NCBI GenBank assembly: GCA_030706225.1
Contig: JAUZOW010000001.1
Coordinates: 1 to 51,955, forward strand
Source: Bacteroidota bacterium
GTDB lineage: Bacteria > Bacteroidota > Bacteroidia > Bacteroidales > FEN-979
DNA length: 51,955 nt
Direction of reading: 5' to 3'
Part shown: one piece after another, positions 7,923-36,085 of the stretch
How positions within the stretch are numbered: position 1 is the first letter of the stretch
How the letters are laid out: each line of letters starts with the position of its first letter
Translations under genes and position numbers: made by a program
Notes under the pieces: model-generated
Databases searched by the model: none
What the model saw: the letters and a program-made list of their open reading frames with translations, nothing else
What the model was told of the DNA's origin: nothing

Positions 7923-7954
7923 TTAACCGATCATCAAGTTGAAAAATTTTTAAA

Positions 7955-20183: not shown

Positions 20184-21170
20184 ATGAACAGCGAGATACT
20201 TATATATCAAAACCAGGAAGGGACTATCAAGATAGACGTTCGCCTCGAAGAGGAGACGGTTTGGCTTACGCAAGAACAAATGGCAACATTATTCGGGAAA
20301 GCAAAATCGACAATCAATGAGCACATAAAAAATATTTATGAAGAGAAAGAGCTCGAAGAAGCAATGACAATGAAGAAATTCGGAATTTCCGAATTTCAGC
20401 AGAAAGCATCTAATTACTACAATCTTGATGTTGTGATTTCGGTTGGCTATCGGGTAAAATCATTACAAGGTACACAGTTCCGGATTTGGGCAACACAACG
20501 TCTTAAAGAGTATATTGTAAAAGGTTTCGCGCTGAATGACGAACGTTTCAAAACAGGGTCGTCAATGAATTATTTTAATGAACTTCAGGAACGTATACGC
20601 GAAATACGCATTTCGGAAAAGCTTTTCTATCAGAAAATCAAAGATATTTATAAAACCAGCATTGATTACGACCCCAATGATGAAAAAACCACAGCGTTTT
20701 TTAAAGTGGTGCAAAACAAGCTACTTTGGGCAATCAGCCAGCAAACCGCTGCCGAATTGGTTTACAGGCGGGTGGATGCTTCTTTGCCATTAATAGGCAT
20801 GCTTTCTTACGACAAAAAGGCAATAGGTCAGGTAAAGAAAGCGGAAGTAGCTATTGCAAAAAACTACCTGAACGAGGATGAAATAAAGTTACTGGGTTTA
20901 TTGGTTGAGCAATATCTTGCTTTTGCCGAAACAATGGCTCAACAACACCAACCTATGTATATGAAAGATTGGATTAAACGGTTGGATGTAATCCTGCAAT
21001 TAAACGGCCGTGAACTACTAACACATGGTGGAACTATCAGCCACCAAATGGCATTGGACAAGTCAGCCATTGAATACCAAAAATACAAGGAAATAATAAA
21101 ACAGGAAGAGAAGGAACAAAGCCTGAAAGAAATAGAAAATGATATTAAAAAGCTAAAACCGGGGAAATGA
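20184..21170 (+). CDS. rhuM: RhuM-family (virulence protein RhuM-like) protein
   Basis: 328 aa. The N-terminal pattern is typical of the RhuM family (IKIDVRLEEETVWLTQEQMATLFGK..STINEHIKNIY, NLDVVISVGYRVKS.QGTQFRIWATQRLKEYIVKGFALND). The sequence has visibly fewer CCGG tetramers and is more A-rich than the surrounding genes. Confidence 0.85.
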   Translation: MNSEILIYQNQEGTIKIDVRLEEETVWLTQEQMATLFGKAKSTINEHIKNIYEEKELEEAMTMKKFGISEFQQKASNYYNLDVVISVGYRVKSLQGTQFRIWATQRLKEYIVKGFALNDERFKTGSSMNYFNELQERIREIRISEKLFYQKIKDIYKTSIDYDPNDEKTTAFFKVVQNKLLWAISQQTAAELVYRRVDASLPLIGMLSYDKKAIGQVKKAEVAIAKNYLNEDEIKLLGLLVEQYLAFAETMAQQHQPMYMKDWIKRLDVILQLNGRELLTHGGTISHQMALDKSAIEYQKYKEIIKQEEKEQSLKEIENDIKKLKPGK

Positions 21171-21997: not shown

Positions 21998-22069
21998 CTT
22001 TTTTTTATTAATCGTTCAAAATGAAAAAGGTGATATGCTCGACCACCATTTTTTTATTACATTCGTAAA

Positions 22070-22828
22070 ATGATTGGCAATAGAATCATACGGCTTGACA
22101 AAGTAGATTCAACGAATCTCTATGCTGAAAGATGGCTTCGTGAGCATCAGGAAGACTGTGAAATGATGGAGGAAGATATTGTCATTATTTCCCGGGAGCA
22201 AACGGCAGGAAAGGGACAAGGTGAAAACCACTGGGAATCGGAAGCCGGGAAGAACCTTACATTTTCCATCATTCTGCATCCCGGTTTTCTGGATCCTTCG
22301 CTGCAGTTTCAACTAAATAAGGCCATTGCTCTGGGTGTCAGTGATTTTGTTCGTCAACAACTGAAACCTGTCCGCTGCTTTCTGAAGTGGCCAAACGATA
22401 TTTATGTGAATCAGCTTAAACTGGGAGGCATTCTGATCCAGCATCAGGTAAATGGTAAAATCCTCGAGAATTCAATCGTTGGTATTGGCCTGAACATAAA
22501 TCAATCTGTTTTTCTCCCGGAAATTCCTGAACCGGCATCTTTTTCCAATATTTCCGGGAAACAATTTGATACCGGAGAACTACTTCCTCTGGTGCTGAAA
22601 AATCTGGATTTTCGCTATAATCAGTTAAAATCAGGAAAGATAGACAAGCTGGATAAGGATTATCACGCCCGCTTGCTGGGATTTGGAAAATGGAATCGTT
22701 ACAGGGTAGGCGATGACTGGATCGAAGGATTGATGGCAGGTGTCGACGAATACGGCCAGCTTATCATCCGGGATACCGATGGGAAAGAGCACTTCTTCAG
22801 TCACGGGGTACTGAAGTTCAAACCCTGA
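22070..22828 (+). CDS. birA: Biotin-[acetyl-CoA-carboxylase] ligase (no N-terminal HTH)
   Basis: 252 aa. It carries QTAGKGQGENHWESEAGKNLTFSIIL (the GRGRxGRxW-equivalent loop) and KWPNDIY..KLGGIL. Confidence 0.85.
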   Translation: MIGNRIIRLDKVDSTNLYAERWLREHQEDCEMMEEDIVIISREQTAGKGQGENHWESEAGKNLTFSIILHPGFLDPSLQFQLNKAIALGVSDFVRQQLKPVRCFLKWPNDIYVNQLKLGGILIQHQVNGKILENSIVGIGLNINQSVFLPEIPEPASFSNISGKQFDTGELLPLVLKNLDFRYNQLKSGKIDKLDKDYHARLLGFGKWNRYRVGDDWIEGLMAGVDEYGQLIIRDTDGKEHFFSHGVLKFKP

Positions 22829-22832
22829 TATT

Positions 22833-24119
22833 TTATTCTCCTTCCAGAATAAAACCTGCCCAGAGATAGGGAAGTGAGGTTTCTTTTTTCGAAATAAAAT
22901 CAAGTTTGGTTTCCCGCAAAGCGGCAGCATATTTTTCCCCTTCCAGAATTTTTTTGTAAAAATCTTTCATAAAGGTGTATCCGTATTTGTCGGTTACATT
23001 CCAAAGCGAATAGATCACATTCCGGGCTCCTGCTTTTATGAAAGCCGTGGATAAAGATTTCCGGGATTGAAAATCGTCCGGATGATTTTTTCCTGTATAG
23101 CATCCGTTGAGTACAACAAGATTTGCGGTCAGTGGAAGTTGGATTATGTCATTATAATTGAGTATCATATCAGAATCATCGGTCCCGGAATCATTGAAAT
23201 CAGATAAAACCAGTCCTGATCCGGAGGGATCAGGATTATTGAACAATGAATGTGTGGCAAAATGGATGCAGGATTTTCCGGAGATATTTTGCTTCAGGGT
23301 ATATTTTGCAGTTTGATTATAGAGGCAGGAAGTAGCCGGAAGATTTGTATTCCTGAAAAGATCCGAAATTTCAAGGATCTCTGTTTCGGAATAAGGAAGT
23401 TGTACATACTGATTATTTTCGTTTGTCCTGAATGAAACCGGTGCAATCCCGATAAAGCTTTTTTCAGGTAAGGGTTTCTGCAAGGAAACCATTTTGTACC
23501 AGTTGTACAGAGAGGATGAATACAAAATTTCAAAACGGTTGACAAGGAAAATATCCGGATCAAATGAAGATTCTTTTTTCCTGCATTTGGGAAGATCCAT
23601 AACCAGTGCTTCAAACGGGATTTCAATCAGTTTTCCGTCGGGAATAATAATCAGTTTATGTTTTCCGGCAAGAGGGTCAAGAAACGGATAGATCAGCTGC
23701 CGGAATAAAATATTTCCGTTGTCAAGAAATTCATCTCTGTCGATCTGTTTGATCGAGTGGATGAAATGATGGACGGAGCCTATAAGACAAGGGGTTCTCT
23801 TCAATTTTTTAACCCAAAGTGAATCATGGGTGATCAGAAAAATGTACAGCAAAGAATCCTTCACCGAAAATTCAAGAATGGCTTCGTCTGGGAAAAGCTT
23901 ATTCCCAATGGTCCGTGAAAACGCTTTTTTGCAGAGGTAATGGGGTTTACAGGAAATGGATGCCGGGCAGTCATAACATAGGAAAGCCTGGCGGAATTCA
24001 CATACCGGTTCCAGAGGACAAGGATCTCCGGGACCTATGGAATAACAGACAATGGAAATCAGAATTCCCAGGATGATTGCGGGAATTCTCATCAAGCTGC
24101 AGATTGTATGTTGAAGCAT
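22833..24119 (-). CDS. Exported CHAT-domain (caspase-like Cys protease fold) protein
   Basis: 428 aa. It has an N-terminal hydrophobic signal/anchor (RIPAIILGILISIVC). The C-terminal ~200 aa show the CHAT pattern with a His/Cys dyad (CIHFATHS at H290; LVVLNGCYTGK at C340). An alternative start at M10 (24092) is possible. Confidence 0.8.
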   Translation of the reverse strand: MLQHTICSLMRIPAIILGILISIVCYSIGPGDPCPLEPVCEFRQAFLCYDCPASISCKPHYLCKKAFSRTIGNKLFPDEAILEFSVKDSLLYIFLITHDSLWVKKLKRTPCLIGSVHHFIHSIKQIDRDEFLDNGNILFRQLIYPFLDPLAGKHKLIIIPDGKLIEIPFEALVMDLPKCRKKESSFDPDIFLVNRFEILYSSSLYNWYKMVSLQKPLPEKSFIGIAPVSFRTNENNQYVQLPYSETEILEISDLFRNTNLPATSCLYNQTAKYTLKQNISGKSCIHFATHSLFNNPDPSGSGLVLSDFNDSGTDDSDMILNYNDIIQLPLTANLVVLNGCYTGKNHPDDFQSRKSLSTAFIKAGARNVIYSLWNVTDKYGYTFMKDFYKKILEGEKYAAALRETKLDFISKKETSLPYLWAGFILEGE

Positions 24120-24154
24120 AGAACATAGGTATTGGGTTGGGATAAGTTGGGCTA

Positions 24155-24955
24155 TCAGGGCTGTTTAATGATGAATTTTCCAAAATGGACGATATCCTCA
24201 TCCTCGATGATCTTATAATAATACAATCCGGGCATAAGGGATCCGGCGTGAAAGGATATTGTATCTTCTTGAATATCTGGAAAGTTCAGTTCCTGATTTC
24301 CCGTATTATTCAGAATAAACAAGCTGATTTCCTTTCTTTCACTGTTTTTCCACTTGAAAAATATTCTCTCGTTTCTGCTGAATTGTGCATCATATTCCGG
24401 CAATTCCATTTTAAAAAAGTTATTCCGCATGGCTATACCGACCAGGCTTTCCAATGCCGGATCGGGAAGGAGCCTCTCAGACAGAAGATTCACTCCGGTT
24501 GCCCGGTCTGTCATTTTGAGAGGTTTCCTTCTCTTTCCGGACTCTGGGAAGAGGTGCGTATTATTCAGGCAAATTATTTCAGATGAGTCCTTTGATGTAG
24601 TAATTATTTGATTGATGTTTTTGTTTTTTTTCTGTTTTTCAGGACAGCTTATATCATAGAAGAAAAATGAAAATACCAATCCGATAAGCAGAAAAAAGGA
24701 TGCAGCCAGGAAAAAGATGGAAGGGTCACAATTGCGGGAATTCTCCTGCTCTTTTTTTATTTTCAGGAATATTTCCCTTAGCTCCAGGATGTCCTCTTCT
24801 GATAAATAGTCATTCAGTTCTTTATCCATCCTTACTTCAGCGCGAAGACGGGGATTTTTTTCAAGTAACGAATAAAACTCTTTTAGCTCTTTTCCCTTTA
24901 AATTGCCCTGATTGAACAGGTCTATCCATTCGAAGAGCTTTTCTTTGTCATTCAT
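24155..24955 (-). CDS. Single-pass membrane protein, anti-sigma-factor-like
   Basis: 266 aa. The N-terminal ~75 aa form a helical cytoplasmic segment (W..L...G.L.G.E..EF..LL..NP.L) of the kind seen in Bacteroidota anti-sigma proteins. One TM helix follows (IFFLAASFFLLIGLVFSFFFY), then a ~165-aa extracytoplasmic domain. Its start overlaps the sigma gene stop (ATGAATGA). Confidence 0.5.
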   Translation of the reverse strand: MNDKEKLFEWIDLFNQGNLKGKELKEFYSLLEKNPRLRAEVRMDKELNDYLSEEDILELREIFLKIKKEQENSRNCDPSIFFLAASFFLLIGLVFSFFFYDISCPEKQKKNKNINQIITTSKDSSEIICLNNTHLFPESGKRRKPLKMTDRATGVNLLSERLLPDPALESLVGIAMRNNFFKMELPEYDAQFSRNERIFFKWKNSERKEISLFILNNTGNQELNFPDIQEDTISFHAGSLMPGLYYYKIIEDEDIVHFGKFIIKQP

Positions 24956-25529
24956 AATTTAAAAGGTTTTTGCATTTCGGATCTTTAAGAATTCGCTTCC
25001 TGAGCATATTTTTGCACAGGTATTTTCTGGTTTTAACATAGCCTTCATCCTTGAAGCCCAATAAAGATGCAATCTCCCGAAGCGGAACCTTTTTAATAAA
25101 TAATTTCAGGATTTTCTGGCAATCTCCGGGTAGTGAAAGGAAGTGTGTTTCGTAGAGCCGTCTCCGTTCCAGCTTTTCTTCTTCAATGTCCATCTCTTCA
25201 GTCATTAACATTTCATTTGTATCATTGACAAGATTATCTCTGTAACAAAGCCGCCATTTCCTGTCAAGCCGCTGCTTCCATATATTCCTGCAAATACTGT
25301 AGAAGTATGTTTTCATACTACAATTCAGGATAAGCGATCCTTTACTGCATTTTGTATAAAGGGCGATCAGCCCGTCATGAAATACATCTTCTGCATCTTC
25401 ATATGTGCCTGAATTCCTGGTCACAAATGATTTTGCCAGTGGAAAATATTCCCTGTAAAGGTAGCGGATGCAATCAGCCCGCTTTTCTAATAATCCTTTC
25501 ACGACTTCTTCGTCAGACAAAATGACCAT
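24948..25529 (-). CDS. ECF-type sigma-70 family RNA polymerase sigma factor
   Basis: Region-2-like (DAEDVFHDGLIALY .. TYFYSICRNIWKQ) and region-4-like HTH (LSLPGDCQKILKLFIKKVPLREIASLLGF) segments are present. The ORF-track start at 25541 is a TTG. The first ATG is 25529. Confidence 0.8.
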   Translation of the reverse strand: MVILSDEEVVKGLLEKRADCIRYLYREYFPLAKSFVTRNSGTYEDAEDVFHDGLIALYTKCSKGSLILNCSMKTYFYSICRNIWKQRLDRKWRLCYRDNLVNDTNEMLMTEEMDIEEEKLERRRLYETHFLSLPGDCQKILKLFIKKVPLREIASLLGFKDEGYVKTRKYLCKNMLRKRILKDPKCKNLLNYE

Positions 25530-25663
25530 GCTGTGTGTCAATACACATTAATCCGCTAACCTTGAAAAGGTGATACGGTTGTTAATAACTTTTTTTTAAA
25601 GATTCCCTTCCCGCAGGAAATGTTCTGCAGGTATTGTAAGGGATAAAGAAACAGCGAAGTGCT

Positions 25664-27796
25664 TTATTTCTTCGATTCAGATGAACCTGAAAATTTCATT
25701 CCCAGGTTATAAAAAATGAATGACCAGATATCGGCTGCTTCATCGATCTGCATGGATGTTGGCTTGCCGGCACCATGGCCTGCTTTGGTTTCTACCCTGA
25801 GAAGCACCGGGTTGCTGCCGGCATTGTCTTCCTGAAGTGTAGCCATAAACTTGAAAGTATGAGCCGGGACTACACGATCGTCATGGTCGGCGGTCAGAGC
25901 CAGTGTCGCCGGGTATTTCACGCCTTTTTTCAAATTGTGCAAAGGAGAGTACTTGATCAGATAGGAAAACCCTTCCTTTGTTTCGCTTGTCCCATAATCA
26001 CCTGCCCATGCATGTCCGATAGTGAATTTGTGATACCGGAGCATATCCATAACCCCAACCTGAGGGATGGCTACTTTGAAAAGTTCCGGATGCTGGGTCA
26101 TGACGGCGCCTATCAGAAGTCCACCGTTGGAACCGCCCATGATAGCCAACTTTTCCGGGGATGTATATTTTTCTGAGATCAGGTATTGGGCTGCTGCAAT
26201 GAAATCGTCAAATACATTCTGCTTGTTCTCTTTTATACCGGCTTTGTGCCAGTCTTCACCGAATTCACCGCCTCCGCGGAGATTGGCTACTGCATAAATC
26301 CCACCGTTTTCAAGAAACAGCATCCGGCTGATTTTGAAATCAGGGGTCAGGCTGATGTTAAATCCGCCGTAACCATACAGAAGGACAGGGTTTTGGCCAT
26401 CCATCCGGATTCCCTTCTTGTAAACCAGAAACATCGGGATGGTGGTATTGTCCTTGCTGCTGTAAAACACCTGCTTGACTTCAAAATCATCTGCATTGAA
26501 ATGGAGATCCGGTTTCCTGAAAACTACGGATTTATTGGTTTTTATATCGTAGCTGAATATCGTAAGTGGATACCGGAAGCTGGTAAAGCCATAAAATGCT
26601 TTGTTGTCTCCTTTATGACTGTTAAATCCTGCAAGTGTTCCCATATCGGGAAGCTTTAGCTCATCAATGAATTTCCCTTTAAAATCATAGATAAAAGCCT
26701 TATTGATAATGTTCTGCATGTAGATGGAAACAATCTTATCTCCGGCTATTTCTGCGGATTCCAAAACATCATCTCTTTCCGGGATAATGGTTCTCCAATG
26801 AGAAGGCTCAGGCGTTTCAGGATCCATCAGAATCAGCTTTTTCTTCGGGGCTTTATAATTGGTCATGACCAAAAGCTTATCTCCGAGGTTATCAACCACA
26901 TTATATTCATAATCAAATCCCGGCGCCAGCAATTTAAAACTCTTTGAAGGCTTGGAAAGATCCTTGAAATATAAAGCATTGCCACTGGTGGTTTCGGATT
27001 CATAAATGAACAGAAAACGCTCGTCTTCTGTAATCCCTGCCTCATAATTACGTTCGGGATATTTGAGATTTTCATAAACCAGGATGTCCTCTTTTTGGGA
27101 AGTTCCTGCTTTGTGAAAATAAACTTTATGATTTTTATTCTGTTCTGCCAGTTCCTGTCCGGGCTTTGGCTCATCATAACGGCTGTAATAAAATCCGTCG
27201 CCTTTCCAGGCCATACCCGAGAATTTAACCCATTTCAGTGTATCCGGGAGGACTTTACCTGAACTGATTTCTATCAGGCAGATTTCGTTCCAGTCGGATC
27301 CACTGCGGGCAATAGTAAAAGCAAGATATTTCCCGTCTTTGGAAGGAGAAATTTCATCCAGTGCAACGGTTCCGTCAGGGGAAAATTTATTTGGATCCAG
27401 CAATATCCTGGGGGTGTCATCCAGCCCCTTCATGACATACAGGACGGATTGGTTTTGTAATCCATCGTTCTTCCGGAAAAAATACCAGGGACCTTTTTTT
27501 AATGGAACTCCATATTTGGGATAATTCCAGATTTGCTGGAATTCCTTTCGTATTTTTTCACGATATGGAATCCGGTCGAGATAATTAAAAGTGACAGTAT
27601 TCTCTTGCTTTACCCATTCTGCTGTCTCTTTAGATGTATCATTTTCAAGCCACCGATAAGGATCGGGAACTTTTTGCCCGAAATAGTTATCTACTATATC
27701 CATCTTTTTCGTAGTTGGATATTTGATCGTGTTCTTACAGGAATTCATAGTGATAAAACCTGAAAGGATCAAGAAAAGTATACAGGACTTTTTCAT
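25664..27796 (-). CDS. Prolyl oligopeptidase (S9A prolyl endopeptidase), secreted
   Basis: 710 aa. It has a signal peptide with a lipobox-like NSC and the N-terminal DPYRWLE motif. The catalytic serine motif GGSNGGLL is present, followed by a C-terminal D..V and GHG. Confidence 0.92.
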   Translation of the reverse strand: MKKSCILFLILSGFITMNSCKNTIKYPTTKKMDIVDNYFGQKVPDPYRWLENDTSKETAEWVKQENTVTFNYLDRIPYREKIRKEFQQIWNYPKYGVPLKKGPWYFFRKNDGLQNQSVLYVMKGLDDTPRILLDPNKFSPDGTVALDEISPSKDGKYLAFTIARSGSDWNEICLIEISSGKVLPDTLKWVKFSGMAWKGDGFYYSRYDEPKPGQELAEQNKNHKVYFHKAGTSQKEDILVYENLKYPERNYEAGITEDERFLFIYESETTSGNALYFKDLSKPSKSFKLLAPGFDYEYNVVDNLGDKLLVMTNYKAPKKKLILMDPETPEPSHWRTIIPERDDVLESAEIAGDKIVSIYMQNIINKAFIYDFKGKFIDELKLPDMGTLAGFNSHKGDNKAFYGFTSFRYPLTIFSYDIKTNKSVVFRKPDLHFNADDFEVKQVFYSSKDNTTIPMFLVYKKGIRMDGQNPVLLYGYGGFNISLTPDFKISRMLFLENGGIYAVANLRGGGEFGEDWHKAGIKENKQNVFDDFIAAAQYLISEKYTSPEKLAIMGGSNGGLLIGAVMTQHPELFKVAIPQVGVMDMLRYHKFTIGHAWAGDYGTSETKEGFSYLIKYSPLHNLKKGVKYPATLALTADHDDRVVPAHTFKFMATLQEDNAGSNPVLLRVETKAGHGAGKPTSMQIDEAADIWSFIFYNLGMKFSGSSESKK

Positions 27797-28085
27797 GGGA
27801 TGGTGTTTGGGTTAGAGTCAGTATTCCAGAAAACAGATTATTAGGGTTAGTAAATTTAAACAGATTCAATAAAAAAATCAATTTATTTCGATTCTTTATG
27901 AATTTTCTTACCTGTTTGCACCACTTTGACTTTTGTTCTGTCGCTTTTTGATCCTTTATATCATCTTTTATTTTGATTATAAATATATAAAAAACACTTT
28001 ATATATAAATCGAAACCTAATTTCTTGTTTGCCGTATAATTCCTAAGAACACGTTGTTTTATTGACAATAAATAACCTGATCAGG

Positions 28086-29102
28086 ATGTTGCAAAAAAAA
28101 TATATTCAAGGTGTATTATGCCTTTTGCTCGTTTTTACATTCAGTTTTTTATGGATCGGATGTAAGAAGAAGGATTCAAATAATGTAAAGACAGATACGA
28201 CTCCGGCAGATTTTCCCGGGGAATACAAGGGTTATATTTCCGCTTATCGACATGGGAAGATGGTAAACAGAAGTGTATCCCTTTCGATTTGTACTTCCAA
28301 CGACGGAGTAAAGCTTCAGGGGATAATGTATTCAAATGATATCAATGTTCTGAGCCCGACGAATTTTTCAGAAGGGATTTTATACTTCCGTGTGATTTGC
28401 AACGACTCGCTGAACAGCAAGTGTCTGACCTGGAATGAAGCCGGGTATGTATATTTTGATGACGATGGATATCTGGAAATGTATATTTCGGGAAATGAAT
28501 GCGGTGATTTAGGCGACGAATATTTTAAATGGTCGGGAACATTAAAACGGGAAAGTAAAGAACCGGATCCTGACCATTATTTTTCTTTTCCTAAACAAGG
28601 GACTCAATGGACGTACAAAATCATGTGGGATACTTACGATACCTGTACTGCCATTCGTTTAATGACCAGCGGGAAGTTGAATGAATATACCGGAACCACC
28701 ACCTATCCCTGCCTGTTTCCTCAAAGCCGGTCGTTTAAATGGACCGTTATTCCTGCTGCTTTTATCATGGAAGGGGACAGTCTTTTAAATCCATGTCCGA
28801 TTACAACAGTCTTCCGGATTGACCATAAGGTAAATAACAGGTACCGGTATATTCAGGGAGGAGACACGATGTATTTGACCTGTACGGGCAGAGGAAACCT
28901 GATTCAGACGCCAATGGGAATCACTCCATATTATGTTTATGAACGAGATTGCCACTTCCATCCCGACGGAAGGAGTATCCATTATGTATCAACATTCTTT
29001 ATCAGTCCTCGACTGGGAATACTGAATGTAATCAATTATCAATACCTCTATTCTTACTATGTAAGAAATGTCGACCTGGACACGATTACATACAGTAAGT
29101 AA
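28086..29102 (+). CDS. Hypothetical Cys-rich lipoprotein
   Basis: The ORF-track start at 28062 is a TTG. The first ATG at 28086 gives MLQKKYIQGVLCLLLVFTFSFLWIGC with a lipobox. No recognisable domain. Confidence 0.6.
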   Translation: MLQKKYIQGVLCLLLVFTFSFLWIGCKKKDSNNVKTDTTPADFPGEYKGYISAYRHGKMVNRSVSLSICTSNDGVKLQGIMYSNDINVLSPTNFSEGILYFRVICNDSLNSKCLTWNEAGYVYFDDDGYLEMYISGNECGDLGDEYFKWSGTLKRESKEPDPDHYFSFPKQGTQWTYKIMWDTYDTCTAIRLMTSGKLNEYTGTTTYPCLFPQSRSFKWTVIPAAFIMEGDSLLNPCPITTVFRIDHKVNNRYRYIQGGDTMYLTCTGRGNLIQTPMGITPYYVYERDCHFHPDGRSIHYVSTFFISPRLGILNVINYQYLYSYYVRNVDLDTITYSK

Positions 29103-29121
29103 ACCGTGTTGGCTGATTTTC

Positions 29122-31122
29122 TCAGAACAATGAATTAATAATTTCCGGATCCACAAAATTCGGAAGGGTGAATGAAAGTTTCTTTTCCGCGTTCATAGCT
29201 CTTTTTGCGGCAAAGATGGCTTCTTTGTTTCTTGCCCATGCTCTTCGGGCAATGCCGTTATTTACATCCCAGAACAGCATGCTTTTCAGTCGTTTATCTG
29301 CTTCCGGGGTTCCGTCCAGAAGCATTCCGAAACCTCCATTGATCACTTCTCCCCATCCGACTCCGCCACCGTTATGAAGTGACACCCAGGTGGCTCCCCG
29401 GAAAGAGTCTCCGATCACATTCTGTACAGCCATATCGGCAGTGAACTGAGATCCGTCGTATATATTGGAAGTTTCACGATAAGGAGAATCCGTACCGGAT
29501 ACATCGTGATGATCACGGCCCAGGACAACCGGCGCCGAAAGATGTCCGTTATGAATAGCTTTGTTAAACGCTGCGGCAATCCGCATACGGCCTTCACAGT
29601 CGGCATAAAGGATTCTTGCCTGAGAACCTACTACCAGTTTGTTTTTAGCCGCTTCGCGGATCCAGTGAATGTTATCCTGCAGCTGCATCGCGATTTCCTG
29701 AGGGGCATGAAGTGCAATATCTTCCAGTACTTCTGTTGCGATCCTGTCGGTGGTTGCCAGGTCTTCCGGATCGCCGGAAGTACAGACCCAGCGGAAAGGC
29801 CCGAATCCGTAATCGAAATAGAGAGGTCCCATGATATCCTGAACGTAAGAAGGATATCTGAAAGTTCCGTCAGGCTTGAAAACATCTGCTCCGGCGCGGC
29901 CGGATTCAAGCAGGAATGCATTGCCATAATCCCAGAAATACATCCCCAATGCTGCCATTTTATTGATAGCGGAACACTGGCGGACCAGCGATTTCTGTAC
30001 TTCAACCTTGAATTTGTCTGGATTTTTTGCCATCATTTCATTGGCTTCCTCGAGAGTCAGGCTGACCGGATAATAACCACCTGCCCAGGGATTATGAAGG
30101 GATGTCTGGTCGGAGCCCATTTCAACCCGGACTTTCTTTTCTGCAAGTTTTTCCCACAGATCGACAATATTCCCCTGGTATGCCAGAGCGATCGCTTCCT
30201 TTTTTTCCTGTGCCTGAAGAATACGACTGATCAGTTCATCCAGATGGGTATAAACTTCATCCACCCAACCTTGCTGGTAACGTTTCTGGACAGCCTTGGG
30301 ATTGATTTCGGCGATTACACCGATTGCACCGGCGATCACAGAGGCTTTCCCCTGAGCACCGGACATACCGCCAAGACCGGAAGTGACAAAAATCTTTCCG
30401 CCGATATCTCCTTTGCTATGGCGCCGGGCTGCATTCATAACCGTGATTGTGGTTCCGTGAACAATTCCCTGGGGACCGATATACATATATGACCCGGCAG
30501 TCATTTGACCATACTGGGAAACGCCCAATGCATTGAATTTTTCCCAATGATCCGGGCTTGAATAATTCGGGATTACCATGCCATTCGTAACCACAACACG
30601 GGGAGCATCTTTATGAGAAGGGAAAAGGCCCATCGGATGACCGGAATACATGACCAATGTCTGCTCGTCAGTCATGGTCGCCAGATATTTCATGGTTAGC
30701 AGGTATTGTGCCCAGTTCTGGAAAGCAGCACCGTTGCCGCCATAGATAATCAGTTCATGCGGGTGTTGTGCTACGGCAGGATTCAGATTATTCTGGATCA
30801 TCAGCATGATGGCACCGGCTTGCAGAGAGTGGTAGGGATATTCCTGGATAGGCCGTGCAAACATGGGATAAGCGGGACGAAAACGGTACATATATATTCG
30901 CCCGTATTTTCTGAGTTCTTCAAGAAATTCAGGAGCCAATACCTTATGATGACGTTTGTCGAAATAGCGAAGGGCATTTTGAAGCGCCAGCTTTTTCTCT
31001 TCCTTACTGAGAATATCCTTTCTTACCGGAGCATGATTCACGGTAGGATCGTAAGGCGGCATTTCCGGAAGCGCTTCCGGAATACCCTGTAAAATGGCAT
31101 TCTTAAAATCAATGTTTTGCAT
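29122..31122 (-). CDS. hutU: Urocanate hydratase (long form)
   Basis: 666 aa. Urocanase blocks are present: GGMSGAQ, MTAGSYMYIGPQGIVHGT, GLGGMSGAQGKA, VSLHNGGGVGWGE. The length fits the ~660-aa Bacteroidota-type enzyme. Confidence 0.93.
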   Translation of the reverse strand: MQNIDFKNAILQGIPEALPEMPPYDPTVNHAPVRKDILSKEEKKLALQNALRYFDKRHHKVLAPEFLEELRKYGRIYMYRFRPAYPMFARPIQEYPYHSLQAGAIMLMIQNNLNPAVAQHPHELIIYGGNGAAFQNWAQYLLTMKYLATMTDEQTLVMYSGHPMGLFPSHKDAPRVVVTNGMVIPNYSSPDHWEKFNALGVSQYGQMTAGSYMYIGPQGIVHGTTITVMNAARRHSKGDIGGKIFVTSGLGGMSGAQGKASVIAGAIGVIAEINPKAVQKRYQQGWVDEVYTHLDELISRILQAQEKKEAIALAYQGNIVDLWEKLAEKKVRVEMGSDQTSLHNPWAGGYYPVSLTLEEANEMMAKNPDKFKVEVQKSLVRQCSAINKMAALGMYFWDYGNAFLLESGRAGADVFKPDGTFRYPSYVQDIMGPLYFDYGFGPFRWVCTSGDPEDLATTDRIATEVLEDIALHAPQEIAMQLQDNIHWIREAAKNKLVVGSQARILYADCEGRMRIAAAFNKAIHNGHLSAPVVLGRDHHDVSGTDSPYRETSNIYDGSQFTADMAVQNVIGDSFRGATWVSLHNGGGVGWGEVINGGFGMLLDGTPEADKRLKSMLFWDVNNGIARRAWARNKEAIFAAKRAMNAEKKLSFTLPNFVDPEIINSLF

Positions 31123-31161
31123 AATGGAATGAAAAAATCTTGTGTGAAATTACAAAATCTC

Positions 31162-31770
31162 TCAGATCTTTTCCTGGGAGTTTTTAAGGATATCGTAAAG
31201 AAATTCACGAGCCCGGAAAAGCTGTGCTTTTACCGTACCCACAGGAAGGGTAAGCTCGTTGGCAATTTCTTCATATGAATATTCTTTAAAATAACGTAAT
31301 TCAACCAGTTCACGGTAATGTGGTTTCAGCTTTTCTACGACTTCACGCATCAGCTGGATTTTCTGCTTTGCGATGATATGCTCCTCCGGGCTGGGAGTTT
31401 CGGAAGGAATATTGGAAGGATAATCTTCCATTTCATTGTCTTCATTCGGAATTCCGCTTGCAAACTTAATCCTCCGGTGCTTCCTCATATAATCAATACA
31501 ATTATTCGCTGCTATCCGGAAAAGCCAGGTGCTGAAAGCATAATCAGGTGTATATTGTTGGAGATTCCGGAAAGCTTTTCCGAACGCTTCAATGGTCAGA
31601 TCGTCGGCATCTTCCGGATTATTCGTCATCTTTAACAACATGAAATAAAGCGAATCCCTGTAATTATTCAAAAGCTCAGCATAGGCCTTCTGATCGCCCT
31701 GGTTAACAGCCGCCTGAACCAAAAGATAATCCCGTCGGGCTTTTTCGGTGAGATGGGAATTTACTTCCAT
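31162..31770 (-). CDS. ECF-type sigma-70 family sigma factor
   Basis: 202 aa. It carries region 2 (DADDLTIEAFGKAF .. FSTWLFRIAANNCIDYMRK) and region 4 (YRELVELRYFKEYSYEEIANELTLPVGTVKAQLFRAR). Confidence 0.88.
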   Translation of the reverse strand: MEVNSHLTEKARRDYLLVQAAVNQGDQKAYAELLNNYRDSLYFMLLKMTNNPEDADDLTIEAFGKAFRNLQQYTPDYAFSTWLFRIAANNCIDYMRKHRRIKFASGIPNEDNEMEDYPSNIPSETPSPEEHIIAKQKIQLMREVVEKLKPHYRELVELRYFKEYSYEEIANELTLPVGTVKAQLFRAREFLYDILKNSQEKI

Positions 31771-32894
31771 CTGTTCTTCTTATTGACTATATTCAGAAAA
31801 GCAAAAATCGTATTTAATAAAATCATTTCCAATGAAAGCAAAGGGGAGAATCCCCAAAGTCTTTTTTCTCCAAGATGACGCATGCATTTCCGGTTGACGA
31901 TCAATTGGCTGGTAGTCCGGACGACGAAAATGGAAAGGATTATGATCCAGTTGTAAAGAATGGAGACCAGTCCGATCGTAAGACCCCAGAAGAGAACTTC
32001 CGATACCGAATGTGTGCCCAGCATCAGCTTGTGCTTGAAACGGTAATATTTTCCCGTTGAAAGATGTCTCCTTTTCTGGATTACCCAGTTACTGAATTTA
32101 GTCTCAGGTTCTGAAAGTGTAATGGACTGAGGATCAATATTTATATGTGTATTGTTTTTTCTGGATACGCGGTTCACGAAAAGATCGTCATCTCCTGAAA
32201 GTATCTTGTAATGGGAAATGAATCCTTGGTTTTCGTAAAAAAGAGATTTCCGGTAAGCCATATTACGGCCAACACCCATATAGGGAGATCCGGCAAGTGC
32301 CCAGGAAAGATACTGGATGGCTATTTGCACGGTATCGAAACGGATTAGAATATTCAAAAGGCCTTTTCTGCGGGCATAAGCTCCGTATCCCAGCACAACT
32401 TTAATGTTTTTATCAAAAGATTGTTGCATCTTCCGGATCCATTGGTCACTGGAAGGCTTGCAATCTGCATCGATCAGAAGAATAAGGTCATTCTTTGCCG
32501 ATTTGATGCCTATCGACAAAGGAAATTTTTTACCGTTGAAAAAATTCAGATTTTCTTGAATTTCAACGATTTTAAGGCGATGATCTTTTTCTGCCATTTG
32601 TGACAGAAGGAACGAAGAATCGTCATCGGATGAATTATTGACTACAATTACTTCAAAATTCGGATAATCCTGAGAAAGTATTGCAGGAAGATTATCCTGG
32701 AGATGATAGTATTCGTTGCGTGCACAGATAACCACCGAGACACCTTCTTCTTTCCTTGTTTCTGTTTTATCCTTATACCTTGCCAGCCTGAAATATACCA
32801 GCCAGTCATACAGGATAAGAATAAGGGATGTCAGACAGAGGAGAAAAAAAAGAACCCACAAAAAAATATTCGGACCCAACAGCGAATTTAGCAT
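31761..32894 (-). CDS. Family-2 glycosyltransferase, membrane-anchored
   Basis: 377 aa. It has the GT2 pattern VSVVICARNE .. VIVVNNSSDD .. LLIDADC plus flanking TM helices. Its 3' end overlaps the sigma gene start by 10 nt. Confidence 0.85.
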   Translation of the reverse strand: MLNSLLGPNIFLWVLFFLLCLTSLILILYDWLVYFRLARYKDKTETRKEEGVSVVICARNEYYHLQDNLPAILSQDYPNFEVIVVNNSSDDDSSFLLSQMAEKDHRLKIVEIQENLNFFNGKKFPLSIGIKSAKNDLILLIDADCKPSSDQWIRKMQQSFDKNIKVVLGYGAYARRKGLLNILIRFDTVQIAIQYLSWALAGSPYMGVGRNMAYRKSLFYENQGFISHYKILSGDDDLFVNRVSRKNNTHINIDPQSITLSEPETKFSNWVIQKRRHLSTGKYYRFKHKLMLGTHSVSEVLFWGLTIGLVSILYNWIIILSIFVVRTTSQLIVNRKCMRHLGEKRLWGFSPLLSLEMILLNTIFAFLNIVNKKNRWK

Positions 32895-32951
32895 TTAACA
32901 CCCATTAAAACATCAGGGGCAAAGATATCTTTATCTTAGTAAAATTAAAAT

Positions 32952-32959
32952 TAACTTTG
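32952..32959 (+). promoter_or_regulatory. Candidate Bacteroidota -7 box TAACTTTG
   Basis: Matches TAnnTTTG 50 nt upstream of the tgt ATG. The palindrome AAAGATATCTTT lies nearby at 32922-32933 and a CCTGTT-ATT-AACAGG hairpin at 32975-32989. Confidence 0.3.
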
Positions 32960-33008
32960 CCATTATTTTGTAAACCTGTTATTAACAGGCATTTTCTAAT
33001 ATAAACAG

Positions 33009-34139
33009 ATGAAATTCAGTGTCGAACACCGCGATCCGGAATCTTCTGCCCGTACTGGGCTTATTCAAACGGATCACGGTCTCATTCATACTCCTGCCTT
33101 TATGCCGGTTGGGACAGCCGGAGCAGTCAAGGCTCTTCACATGCGCGATCTAAGGGAAGATATCCGTGCAGAGATTATCCTTGGGAATACTTATCATCTG
33201 TATCTTCGTCCGGGAATAGATATCATCGCAAAAGCCGGAGGGTTACACGGGTTTAATGGTTGGAACCGTCCCATTCTGACTGACAGCGGAGGCTTTCAGG
33301 TATATTCATTGGCAGATATCCGTAAATTCAGGGAAGACGGGGTTGAGTTTCAATCCCATATAGATGGATCTAAGCATTATTTTACACCGGAAAGCGCTGT
33401 AGATATTCAGCGGCAACTTGGATCCGATATTATGATGGCTTTTGATGAGTGTACTCCTTTCCCGTGTGAATATTCCTATGCACGGCAATCCATGGAACGT
33501 ACCCATCGCTGGCTTGACCGTTGTATGGAACATTATCAGAAAACTTCTTGCCCTTACGGTCATCATCAGAGCCTTTTTCCTATCGTTCAGGGAAGTATTT
33601 ACAAGGAACTCAGGATCCGCTCTGCAGAATACATTGCCGGGTTGGGAGCGGAAGGAAATGCCATCGGCGGATTGTCAGTAGGTGAACCTACGGAAACCAT
33701 GTATGAAATGACAGCTGCCGTATGTGCCATCCTGCCGGAGGATAAACCACGCTATTTGATGGGCGTTGGGACACCGGCTAACATTCTGGAAAGCATCTCC
33801 CGGGGAGTGGATATGTTCGATTGTGTAATCCCGACACGCAACGGCCGTAACGGGATGCTCTTTACACGCCGGGGAATCATGAATATTAAAAATGAGAAAT
33901 GGAAAGAAGACTTTTCTCCCCTGGAAGAAGAAGGAGATGTCTTTACAGATAAAGAATATTCAAAGGCATATCTTCGCCATCTTTTTATATCCCGGGAAAT
34001 TCTCGCAGCGATGATCGCTTCCCTTCATAACCTGGGATTTTATATGTGGCTCGTTAAGGAAGCCAGAAAACAAATTGAAGCAGGTACTTTCAGCGAATGG
34101 AAGGATTCTGCGATCAAACAAGTCATGAAAAGGCTATGA
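33009..34139 (+). CDS. tgt: tRNA-guanine transglycosylase (queuine tRNA-ribosyltransferase)
   Basis: 376 aa. It carries ARTG.....HG...TP.FMPVGT, ILTDSGGFQV and GLSVGEP, but no classical zinc motif CxCxxC. Overall a full-length Tgt pattern. Confidence 0.93.
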   Translation: MKFSVEHRDPESSARTGLIQTDHGLIHTPAFMPVGTAGAVKALHMRDLREDIRAEIILGNTYHLYLRPGIDIIAKAGGLHGFNGWNRPILTDSGGFQVYSLADIRKFREDGVEFQSHIDGSKHYFTPESAVDIQRQLGSDIMMAFDECTPFPCEYSYARQSMERTHRWLDRCMEHYQKTSCPYGHHQSLFPIVQGSIYKELRIRSAEYIAGLGAEGNAIGGLSVGEPTETMYEMTAAVCAILPEDKPRYLMGVGTPANILESISRGVDMFDCVIPTRNGRNGMLFTRRGIMNIKNEKWKEDFSPLEEEGDVFTDKEYSKAYLRHLFISREILAAMIASLHNLGFYMWLVKEARKQIEAGTFSEWKDSAIKQVMKRL

Positions 34140-35254
34140 TAAAGAATAACAGAAAAAAAAGAAACCTATTCCCTTTGCTAAAAACTATTGATTACTATAT
34201 CATCAAGAAGTTTCTGGGTACATTCTTCTTTTCTATCATTCTGTTGCTTTTCATTATCATTGTTTTTGATGTCTCAGAACACATTGATGACTTTTTGAAA
34301 CATGATGCGCCATTAAAAGCGATTATTTTCCAGTATTACCTGAATTTTATTCCCGATTTTGTAAACCTCTTCAGCTATCTCTTTGTTTTTATTTCGGTAA
34401 TCTTCTTTACTTCCAAAATGGCTTCCAATACGGAGATCGTTGCAATATTGAGCAGCGGGATCAGTTTCAGACGTCTTATGGTTCCATACCTGTTTTCAGC
34501 AGTATTGTTGGGTTTGCTGAGCTTCTTTCTTGGCAATTTTATTATTCCCTATACCAACCGCGGAAAACTGGCCTTTGAACGGAAATACATAAAGGATCCC
34601 AAACAGTTCAATGACATGAATATTCATAAGCAGATCAACCCGGGAACCTTTATTTATATGGAAAATTTCAATGTTCATAATAAAGTGGGCTGGAAGTTTT
34701 CTATGGAACAATTCAAGGGGAAAGACATGACTAAAAAGCTCATGGCCGAAAGGGCTGATTATGATTCTATTCGCGATCACTGGATACTTCAACCCTATTT
34801 TGAACGGAGCATGGATGGAATGAAGGAATCGATTAGACAGGGCAGTCGCCTGGATACTGTACTGCCTCTGAAGCCTAAAGATTTTATGGAAGATATTGAA
34901 GAAGTTTCCATTATGAATTATTTTGTTCTGGATAGTCATATAAAGGATAAGATCCTGCGAGGTGACCCGGATGTCATTAAATATAAGGTCAAGAAATACG
35001 AACGGATTGCTTTTCCTTTTGCCACACTGGTGCTTACATTAATTGGATTTGCCGTATCCAGCAGGAAGGTAAGGGGAGGAATAGGGTTTAATCTTGGATT
35101 TGGACTTGCTCTTACATTCCTTTATATCCTGTTTATGCAGATCTTTACGGTTTTTGCCACCTTTGGCAACTTTCCTCCGTTGCTGGCAGTTTGGATTCCG
35201 AATATCCTTTTTGGAATCATTGCAATTTTCCTGCTTCGGATGGCTCCGAAATAA
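34136..35254 (+). CDS. LptF/LptG-family (YjgP/YjgQ) permease
   Basis: The ATG at 34136 overlaps the tgt stop (ATGA). The motif IDYYIIKKFLGTFFFSIILLLFIIIVFDVSE is typical of the family. The topology is 3 + 3 TM helices with a central periplasmic domain. Confidence 0.85.
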   Translation: MIKNNRKKRNLFPLLKTIDYYIIKKFLGTFFFSIILLLFIIIVFDVSEHIDDFLKHDAPLKAIIFQYYLNFIPDFVNLFSYLFVFISVIFFTSKMASNTEIVAILSSGISFRRLMVPYLFSAVLLGLLSFFLGNFIIPYTNRGKLAFERKYIKDPKQFNDMNIHKQINPGTFIYMENFNVHNKVGWKFSMEQFKGKDMTKKLMAERADYDSIRDHWILQPYFERSMDGMKESIRQGSRLDTVLPLKPKDFMEDIEEVSIMNYFVLDSHIKDKILRGDPDVIKYKVKKYERIAFPFATLVLTLIGFAVSSRKVRGGIGFNLGFGLALTFLYILFMQIFTVFATFGNFPPLLAVWIPNILFGIIAIFLLRMAPK

Positions 35255-35260
35255 ATTCTG

Positions 35261-36085
35261 TCAAAAAGAGGGTATCAATTCACCTTGCCAGGTAAAATAA
35301 TTTTTGAACTCTTCCGGAAGAGAAATCCTGCTCCTGAATATCCCGAATACTGCTGAACCGCTTCCGCTCATGGAGGCATAAGCTGCTCCGGAATCATATA
35401 ACCGTTCTTTAATATGGTTGATTTCTGGATATTTCCGCGAAATGGGCTTTTCAAAGTCGTTGACCAGATTTTCCCGCCAGGATTCCAGAGGCATCTTCAG
35501 CAGCCGGCGAATACCTGTCAGGGGAATACGGGGAGCTATCATGGAATATGCTTCCGATGTATCGATATGGATGCCGGGTACTGCAATCAAAATATGAAAA
35601 CCGGAAAGATCCAGTCCTACAGGTTCCATTTGCTCTCCTTTTTTTGTTGCGAATACAGGATGCCTCCGGATGAAAAATGGACAATCGCTGCCCAGCCGGC
35701 TGGCATAGCTTTCCAGCTTTTCTTCCGTCAGATTCAGGTTAAAGATCTTATTCAGCATTATCAGTGCGAAAGCTGCATCCGCCGATCCTCCGCCAAGACC
35801 GGAACCCATGGGGATGATCTTATGCAGGTGAATAGAAACCGGTGGGATGGTATGCTCCTGAGAAAGAAGGTTATATGCTCTCAATACCAGGTTTTTTCCC
35901 GGATCGCCGGGGATGAGTATCCCACTTGTCGTAAAGATCGTTTCTTTCCCGGTGGAAGGGAGTATTTCCATTATATCACAAAGGGTAACGGGATAAAAAA
36001 GCGTTTCAATGTTGTGAAAACCGTCGTCTCTCTTTTCGACGATATTCAACCCGAGATTTATCTTGGCATGTGGATATGAGATCAT
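35261..36085 (-). CDS. ispE: 4-diphosphocytidyl-2-C-methyl-D-erythritol kinase
   Basis: 274 aa. It carries AKINLGLNI..KR.DG.H.IET and the GHMP kinase motif IPMGSGLGGGSADAA. Confidence 0.9.
   Translation of the reverse strand: MISYPHAKINLGLNIVEKRDDGFHNIETLFYPVTLCDIMEILPSTGKETIFTTSGILIPGDPGKNLVLRAYNLLSQEHTIPPVSIHLHKIIPMGSGLGGGSADAAFALIMLNKIFNLNLTEEKLESYASRLGSDCPFFIRRHPVFATKKGEQMEPVGLDLSGFHILIAVPGIHIDTSEAYSMIAPRIPLTGIRRLLKMPLESWRENLVNDFEKPISRKYPEINHIKERLYDSGAAYASMSGSGSAVFGIFRSRISLPEEFKNYFTWQGELIPSF

Follow-up and report, generated by a model that had tools for sequence, protein, structure and literature searches.

Sigma factors of the extracytoplasmic function (ECF) type form the largest class of alternative sigma factors in bacteria, with approximately 22 per genome in Bacteroidota (PMC7826278), and proteins with a CHAT domain have been linked to the control of some of them. 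In M. xanthus, DdvA is a transmembrane anti-sigma factor fused to a periplasmic TPR-CHAT part and has been proposed to cleave itself as the site-1 step (PMC11506125). In craspase, the TPR-CHAT protease Csx29 cuts Csx30, the protein that inhibits the ECF-like CASP-sigma (PMC10028731), and genes for CHAT proteins, subtilases or carboxypeptidases occur near ECF54 sigma factors (PMC8999054, citing Casas-Pastor 2021 and Huang 2015), which are actinobacterial and lack an anti-sigma factor (PMC7826278). Here we describe a cassette of an ECF sigma factor, a putative anti-sigma factor and an exported CHAT protein in a stretch of 51,955 nucleotides (hereafter the window; contig JAUZOW010000001.1, positions 1 to 51,955, assembly GCA_030706225.1) from a Bacteroidota bacterium of the Bacteroidales lineage FEN-979. 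With a probability of about 0.45, we read it as an autoregulated sigma/anti-sigma switch that is gated by a periplasmic CHAT protease and has radC as its output. The module is a separable-gene variant of known sigma/anti-sigma/CHAT systems and not unprecedented; given DdvS/DdvA, craspase and ECF54, the statement in an original prediction for this DNA, made from the sequence alone, that no such module had been characterized is outdated. In the literature, no paper describing the present module was found, and searches for radC together with an ECF sigma factor in Bacteroidetes and for periplasmic CHAT proteins together with sigma factors yielded nothing beyond DdvA and craspase.

The three genes of the cassette are:

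24948..25529, minus strand: ECF-type sigma factor, 193 aa, ATG at 25529, with a further TTG start at 25541 in the same open reading frame (ORF)
24155..24955, minus strand: putative single-pass anti-sigma factor, 266 aa, named from its position, coupling and predicted topology
22833..24119, minus strand: short exported or membrane-anchored CHAT protein, 428 aa, matching PF12770

ORFs together with Pfam and NCBIfam matches confirm the earlier observation of three co-directional genes, including their spacings and domains. The start of the sigma gene was placed at the ATG at 25529, the end given in the original prediction, instead of the TTG at 25541, because the aligned upstream regions and N-termini of orthologues support it. 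The protein matches Pfam Sigma70_r2 (3.2e-09), a separate Pfam region-4 match being absent, and scores 66.6 bits against the NCBIfam model TIGR02937 (sigma70-ECF; cut-off 42.9, residues 24-183), which upholds its assignment to the ECF type; no equivalog or subfamily model was matched above cut-off. It shares 54-65% identity with orthologues in Bacteroidales metagenome-assembled genomes (MAGs). Its TGA stop codon overlaps the ATG of the 266-aa gene by 8 nt (ATGAATGA, in the context 'aattATGAATGAcaaa'), and the overlap is kept as ATGAnTGA or ATGAGTAA in most orthologous loci, in line with the translational coupling that had been suggested. As also described before, the ATG of the CHAT gene follows the 266-aa gene after a gap of 35 nt (24120-24154).

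In its overall architecture the cassette resembles DdvS/DdvA (PDB 8rot). Both have an ECF sigma factor, a single-pass anti-sigma protein (putative here) with a small cytoplasmic helical domain (here predicted) and a flexible periplasmic linker, and a periplasmic TPR-CHAT part with a His/Cys dyad, for which in DdvA a role as site-1 protease ahead of RseP has been proposed. In contrast to DdvA, however, the TPR-CHAT part is a separate secreted protein here, its gene lying 35 nt apart instead of being fused to that of the anti-sigma factor, and the anti-sigma factor has a periplasmic domain of its own, a small beta-sandwich resembling a sorting domain of the type IX secretion system (T9SS). Furthermore, the CHCC zinc site is absent, no conserved His or Cys ligands being present in the N-terminal domain of the 266-aa protein; the host belongs to the Bacteroidales and not to the Myxococcota, the predicted output is radC, and the window copy has lost the TPR region. 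With craspase the cassette would share a TPR-CHAT protease that frees an ECF-type sigma factor by way of an anti-sigma-like protein, and a sigma factor that activates promoters of its own locus. Craspase works in the cytoplasm, where RNA activates it through Cas7-11, and Csx30 is soluble, whereas here the protease carries a signal peptide, the putative partner sits in the membrane, and clustered regularly interspaced short palindromic repeats (CRISPR) are absent from the surroundings. The likeness to ECF54 lies in the bioinformatic association of ECF sigma and CHAT genes, but here a clear candidate for the anti-sigma factor exists. Compared with the RseA/DegS/RseP system of E. coli and the RsiW/PrsW/RasP system of B. 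subtilis, the cassette likewise has paired sigma and putative anti-sigma genes; the anti-sigma protein is predicted to cross the membrane once with its N-terminus inside, would be shielded from site-2 cleavage by its periplasmic domain, and carries two adjacent Ala residues where the transmembrane (TM) helix reaches the cytoplasm. Unlike DegS and PrsW, the candidate for site-1 cleavage is a protein of caspase fold (clan CD) instead of a serine protease or metalloprotease, and its gene belongs to the operon.

The 266-aa protein is likely an anti-sigma factor, as judged by its position, the conserved translational coupling and its architecture; this part of the original prediction agrees with the predicted single-pass topology. 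An AlphaFold model built from 54 sequences (predicted local distance difference test score, pLDDT, 82.6) consists of four N-terminal helices (residues 3-15, 21-33, 35-52 and 54-72), a TM helix (78-102), a disordered linker (~108-150) and a C-terminal beta-sandwich (~170-263), the five helices being modeled with high confidence. No Pfam family matches the protein, and a word-based search retrieved just two relatives (35% identity); the family emerged from a full HMMER search at E<=1e-10 and comprises 345 clusters, nearly all of 250-270 aa. Its alignment contains a conserved N-terminal part of ~70 residues, the TM segment, a variable linker and a C-terminal domain that ends in GLYYxK...GKF. The pair Ala84-Ala85, located at the cytoplasmic end of the TM helix, is invariant across the family and recalls the Ala-rich ends that are exposed when RseA and RsiW undergo site-2 cleavage. 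Searching the family profile against PDB sequences yielded low-complexity or TM noise and no solved anti-sigma factors. Weak Pfam matches occur in a few members, namely DUF3379 in 7 of the 54 sequences and zf-HC2 in one of them.

The C-terminal domain of the 266-aa protein (the last ~100 aa, window 24155-24460) weakly resembles a T9SS type A sorting domain, according to the predicted fold and sub-threshold profile matches. Foldseek matches to the beta-sandwich are of a generic Ig/FN3 type, with the T9SS sorting domains 8glk_D and 8qb1 among the best (target-normalized TM-score 0.68-0.69). Por_Secre_tail (PF18962) matches 32 of the 54 family members below threshold (best 3e-5, all <27 bits), and the window protein reaches 17.5 bits against TIGR04183 (E 0.003, cut-off 23). 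The protein was nevertheless ruled out as an ordinary T9SS cargo, since it has a cytoplasmic domain and a TM helix in place of a signal peptide and the profile matches remain sub-threshold.

The linkage of the three genes was followed in loci from a sigma-alignment scan restricted to one genome per species, a metagenome scan with the 266-aa family, and a contig of the Joint Genome Institute (JGI). Alignment A4 was used for scanning the loci, A3 being too diverse, and the queries run against all loci were the proteins of the three window genes plus full-length orthologues. The sigma scan gave eight loci in Bacteroidales MAGs, with sigma factors 55-65% identical to that of the window, and the metagenome scan added twenty more. 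The JGI contig encodes a 195-aa sigma factor (54% identical), an 8-nt overlap, the 266-aa protein, a 34-nt gap and a TPR-CHAT protein of 946 aa. Among the loci that have a 266-aa homologue with no less than 300 bp of sequence downstream of it (n=21), a CHAT or TPR-CHAT gene comes next on the same strand in 21 of 21, and the sigma gene lies upstream wherever that DNA exists, with the exception of locus L034. Conservation of the link between the sigma clade and CHAT genes had been named beforehand as the refuting test, and the link held in every informative locus, L003 among them. Many loci share wider synteny with the window, including the S9 peptidase, urocanase and a second ECF sigma factor; however, L003 and L004 keep the trio in a different neighborhood, and the trio is therefore a unit and not an effect of shared synteny. 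The CHAT protein is a TPR-CHAT form of ~900-960 aa in 19 of the 21 loci, and TPR-less forms occur in the window and in L046 alone. All seven full-length TPR-CHAT orthologues examined start with a signal peptide and were therefore placed in the periplasm, which sustains the proposal that the CHAT protein shares a compartment with the C-terminal domain of the membrane protein. In the single negative example, L014, a 43%-identical sigma factor is preceded by the promoter-like motif described below, the C-terminal domain of the anti-sigma protein differs and no CHAT gene is found nearby; this fits a functional pairing of the beta-sandwich domain and CHAT.

Some of the loci carry altered versions of these genes. 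The TPR-less CHAT gene of L046 (926-1546) encodes a protein whose CHAT domain begins almost straight behind its signal peptide, and the gene comes right after that of a shorter (218-aa) anti-sigma homologue; the contig ends before the catalytic residues. A recent common origin of the two short forms was considered and rejected, as the L046 protein is no closer to that of the window than the long forms are. Because the L046 form is not a close relative of the window gene, loss of the TPR region seems to have occurred more than once. On the metagenome contig L034 (9300-10000), the sigma gene is destroyed down to its last ~27 codons and the motif is gone, and the genes for the anti-sigma protein and a 905-aa TPR-CHAT protein are still open. 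In L037 (2657-5352) and L045 (623-3441) the TPR-CHAT gene is split into two overlapping ORFs, for which a frameshift, a sequencing error or pseudogenization may account. More distant relatives of the sigma factor (26-33% identity) in Tenacibaculum (L017, 4283-9334) and Runella (L018, 7818-11952) are followed by a different protein of ~230-264 aa and adjoin, in divergent or convergent orientation, a gene for a TPR-CHAT protein of ~910-940 aa with a C-terminal TM helix. There may thus be a wider association of ECF sigma factors with TPR-CHAT proteins in the Bacteroidota.

The CHAT protein of the window differs from this common form. It matches PF12770 almost completely (8e-47, profile positions 4-288 of 289, residues 135-427) and consists of a hydrophobic N-terminal signal or anchor stretch (IPAIILGILISIV), a Cys-rich segment of ~45 aa, and the CHAT domain (~70-428). 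The database gene call uses the second ATG and gives 419 aa. The N-terminal signal or anchor and the His290/Cys340 dyad of the original prediction were both found, His290 in HFATH and Cys340 in LNGC, and His286 is kept as well. Conservation was judged on 60-69 diverse CHAT proteins (alignments A5 and A6) and on the seven orthologues, and the His and Cys are invariant in both sets, so the dyad is conserved in orthologues as the prediction demanded. An AlphaFold model built from the more distant homologues of A6 is confident overall (pLDDT 82.5, predicted template modeling score, pTM, 0.85), with residues 1-61 disordered and of low confidence; the closest solved structures are craspase Csx29 (8e-14), DdvA (1.5e-10) and separases. 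Csx29 and DdvA are the two CHAT proteins already tied to the control of ECF sigma factors.

No TPR was matched by Pfam in the window protein, and no TPR remnant was detected when the orthologue TPR regions were searched with tblastn against all frames of the window. The protein aligns to residues ~580-945 of a 946-aa TPR-CHAT orthologue, that is, to its last ~365 residues, with 36% identity, and its first ~65 residues have no alignment to orthologues. The TPR-less form noted in the original prediction is thus real for the window copy but not the typical state of the module, being a rare derived form found at two of the 21 loci. No relative above 33-36% identity was found among 5.8 billion proteins. 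Of the short CHAT proteins, P0002 and P0012 come closest, but neither is encoded near a sigma gene, so neighbors by the CHAT domain alone are uninformative. Seven positions that are at least 90% conserved among CHAT proteins are replaced in the window (S338N, A339G, G345N, E351Q, G352S, R358T and T380G); five of them reach this level in both A5 and A6, Ala339 and Arg358 in A5 only. The conserved block SAC-TG-G....GEG..L.R.F around the catalytic Cys, retained by the orthologues, is absent from the window protein (NGCYTGKNHPDDFQSRKSLSTAF), and the stretch after the Cys reads LNGCYTGKNHPDDFQSRKSLSTAF in the window versus LSACATGKGKVTRTEGVLALTRGF. Altogether, 56 of the 84 positions invariant in the seven orthologues are kept, with nine substitutions within the 21 residues that follow Cys340. 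From these comparisons, the window gene appears to have arisen by an internal deletion of ~500 TPR codons combined with divergence around the catalytic Cys. Owing to this loss and divergence, the window protease would be either deregulated, re-specialized or inactive, and its catalytic competence is uncertain; the sigma factor, the anti-sigma protein and both copies of the motif look intact.

The evidence for autoregulation and for radC as an output comes from a promoter-like motif with two sites in the window:

25548..25575, minus strand: promoter-like motif TATCACCTTTT-N10-GGATTAA, 18 nt upstream of the sigma ATG
22008..22035, minus strand: second copy of the motif, TATCACCTTTTTCATTTTGAACGATTAA, with a distance of 10 nt to the ATG of radC downstream, 28.0 bits
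21299..21997, minus strand: radC, 232 aa, with a UPF0758 N-terminal domain (UPF0758_N 2.3e-31) and a RadC-like JAB domain (RadC 2.8e-44)

Upstream of the sigma gene, ~55 nt are conserved among the loci as AAAAAAGTTATyAACAaCCGTATyACCTTTT-N10-sGATTAA, with ~18 nt left between this block and the ATG; in the window, the motif follows a conserved A-tract and GTTATTAACAACCG, which reach ~25600. The motif precedes the sigma orthologue in every locus that includes this sequence (19 distinct sites, 28-42 bits), and with a matrix trained solely on these sites no background position scored above 16.5 bits in the 642 kb scanned (1.28 million positions). Among the contigs of close RadC orthologues, the motif also lies upstream of radC in four further genomes, at 34-37 bits (L050 9963-9990, L054 9962-9989, L055 9961-9988, L056 9962-9989); in these and the window it sits ~10-12 nt before the ATG, the radC sites scoring 28.0-36.9 bits. 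Outside the sigma- and radC-upstream sites it was found nowhere in the 642 kb scanned. The module and the radC site occur together in at least two genomes, that of the window and that of contig PLMO01000176.1, which L056 and L008 share. A generic scan for sigma-70 promoters and terminators gave nothing above shuffled expectation. The two-block layout, with a T-rich tract after a -35-like element, appears to resemble an ECF-type promoter. We infer that the motif upstream of the sigma gene is an ECF autoregulatory promoter and, from the motif alone, that radC belongs to the regulon of the sigma factor. The cassette thus probably switches on its own operon and radC, and the simplest reading would be a small regulon that consists of the operon itself plus radC.

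Taken together, the data suggest the following model, in which the cassette would serve a clade of the Bacteroidales as a compact signaling device between envelope and cytoplasm. The N-terminal helices of the 266-aa anti-sigma protein, which is co-translated with the sigma factor, would keep the latter at the inner membrane; the beta-sandwich and disordered linker of the anti-sigma protein would lie in the periplasm alongside the product of the third gene. The latter would be a Sec-exported CHAT cysteine protease, equipped in nearly all relatives with a large TPR sensor or scaffold. In response to a periplasmic signal, CHAT would cut the periplasmic part of the anti-sigma protein, most plausibly in the linker, which would constitute the site-1 cleavage; an RseP-type intramembrane protease and cytoplasmic proteases would then clear the remainder and release the sigma factor. 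Free sigma factor would transcribe its own operon from TAyyACCTTTT-N10-sGATTAA, and radC from the second copy of this motif. The interpretation in the original prediction is partly upheld, namely in the ECF sigma factor, the anti-sigma-like topology, the linkage, the dyad and the shared compartment, but not in its statement that no such module had been characterized. Several points weigh against the model. DegS and PrsW are usually encoded outside the sigma operon, and co-transcription would suit an effector or a co-regulator equally well. Solved anti-sigma factors do not match the N-terminal domain of the 266-aa protein significantly by sequence, and Foldseek with the whole model matched the beta-sandwich only. 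The window CHAT protein, without a TPR region and with Ser338, Ala339, Gly345, Glu351, Gly352 and Arg358 near Cys340 replaced, may be inactive as a protease, and another factor could read the motif. Moreover, the CHAT activity of DdvA is likewise only proposed, without experimental demonstration (PMC11506125).

Three other explanations, which overlap with the proposed switch and with each other, have to be weighed. The CHAT protein might not cut the anti-sigma protein at all, but act as an output or accessory protease on other substrates, or as a non-catalytic, RseB-like binder that protects the beta-sandwich until the TPR region meets its ligand. We consider this possible, though somewhat unlikely. 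The CHAT gene is the last of an operon behind an autoregulation-type motif, and its product would thus rise with sigma activity; TPR arrays, which are protein-binding scaffolds, dominate the long forms. The window copy has lost its TPR region and is eroded near the active site, yet the sigma factor and the anti-sigma protein are intact, so that the switch can persist with an altered CHAT protein, and in L034 it is the sigma gene that was destroyed while the other two genes stayed open. The invariance of the His/Cys dyad across orthologues, however, argues for catalysis, and the adjacency to this type of anti-sigma protein in 21 of 21 loci, together with the precedents of Csx29/Csx30 and DdvA, points to the anti-sigma protein as the partner; the neighborhood offers no further conserved gene product as a candidate substrate. 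A related explanation concerns the window alone: its CHAT protein could be a decaying remnant or pseudo-enzyme, the cassette functioning, if at all, as a plain sigma/anti-sigma pair. The retention of just 56 of 84 invariant positions, the cluster of nine substitutions in 21 residues after Cys340 and the replacement of seven positions conserved in at least 90% of the 60-69 CHAT proteins are compatible with decay, as are the non-homologous, Cys-rich residues 1-61 with their low model confidence and the absence of relatives above 33-36% identity from a set of 5.8 billion proteins. We nevertheless regard a remnant as distinctly unlikely, since all 428 codons form an intact ORF that matches the Pfam CHAT profile over its full length (8e-47), the fold is confidently predicted (pTM 0.85), His286, His290 and Cys340 are kept, and the short form with a signal peptide in L046, which is not closely related, suggests that TPR-less versions can be maintained.

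The remaining explanation concerns the motif. It could be the site of a different regulator or sigma factor with the cassette and radC both under its control, the regulon of the cassette itself lying elsewhere. The link between the sigma factor and the motif was drawn from sequence, of the five genomes with a radC motif the check for the cassette covered two, that of the window and that of L056, both of which carry it, and the -35-like element GTATyAC differs from the textbook ECF box GGAAC. Against this stand the two-block layout, the fixed spacing and the fixed short distance to the ATG in every orthologue, including the 43%-identical sigma factor of L014, as well as the absence of the motif elsewhere in the 642 kb. 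In addition, ECF sigma genes are typically autoregulated. A foreign regulator therefore seems unlikely to us, and the autoregulated switch gated by CHAT remains the reading that we prefer.

The genes surrounding the cassette vary among the loci. Immediately upstream of the sigma gene lies a peptidase gene that had been left open as a possible member of the unit:

25664..27796, minus strand: S9 prolyl oligopeptidase, its N-terminus of the lipoprotein-like or signal type (Pfam Peptidase_S9_N 4e-122, S9 1.5e-66)

Its identity and its spacing were correctly given, the distance from its end to the sigma gene being 122 nt to the TTG and 134 nt to the ATG. An S9 gene is found directly upstream of the sigma gene in L006-L013, L035-L037, L039, L043 and L044, and not in L003, L004 and L032. 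Core membership was rejected, as the gene is missing from L003 and L032 and is located 5' of the motif; it is probably a frequent upstream neighbor that forms a separate transcription unit. In L003 (7378-9089) and L004 (982-2692), a gene of the MbnB/TglH/ChrH family (DUF692) and a 74-aa ORF lie divergently upstream of the module, which looks like a peptide-modification pair replacing the S9 peptidase. Long perfect inverted repeats (CACGTCACACGTCA... and GATGCTGGATGCTGG... hairpins) between the S9 gene and the A-tract in L006 (~780-850) and L009 (~7830-7950) may be terminators or repeat elements. Farther upstream in the window, the gene of a second, canonical ECF sigma factor (31162-31770, minus strand, 202 aa, Sigma70_r2 and r4_2) shares an overlap with the end of a gene for a family-2 glycosyltransferase; L008, L009, L012 and L055 have the sigma gene in synteny, and no adjacent anti-sigma gene was noted.

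On the radC side, a RhuM-family gene (20184-21170, plus strand, Pfam 5e-95) is situated between radC and a polysaccharide deacetylase gene in the window. It is a probable insertion, because the two flanking genes are adjacent in relatives (L050, L052, L054 and L056). In L056 (1-10700) and L055, the TPR-CHAT gene is separated from birA-radC by ~8 kb with genes for PMT_2, a cold-shock protein, a GHMP kinase, a MauG-like protein, MbnP and UDG, and in the window (22070-36085) the CHAT gene abuts birA and a GHMP kinase homologue lies at 35261-36085; this part of the window is rearranged relative to L056 and L055. PADLOC found no significant defense family among the genes, with one weak BovA match to the CHAT protein (E 0.0012, 15.9 bits), and no genes of CRISPR or cyclic-oligonucleotide-based anti-phage signaling systems (CBASS) were found adjacent to the module.

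The conserved module is more interesting than its copy in the window, whose CHAT protein is a truncated and partly eroded outlier. A more far-reaching and rather improbable interpretation would be a surveillance switch of the Bacteroidales, in which a secreted TPR-CHAT protein acts in trans on an anti-sigma protein that mimics a T9SS sorting domain, so that an envelope event such as the entry of phage or DNA or a malfunction of the T9SS would induce radC. A parallel to CHAT and the anti-sigma protein would be PorU, a protease of clan CD by which T9SS cargo is relieved of its sorting domains, and radC belongs to competence regulons in other bacteria. The radC gene is near-universal, and to our knowledge no function has been established for it. 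If the surveillance interpretation is true, the module would be the first system whose separable parts allow a genetic test of the DdvA-type idea of CHAT as site-1 protease, and radC would gain its first defined regulatory input. Few signaling routes to ECF sigma factors are known, and the separate genes for protease and anti-sigma protein make site-1 cleavage by CHAT directly testable. The two TPR-less variants constitute a natural experiment on the contribution of the TPR array, and the 266-aa family, with its 345 clusters, lacks annotation. Finally, the predicted regulon of two targets, the operon and radC, would open a route into the function of RadC.

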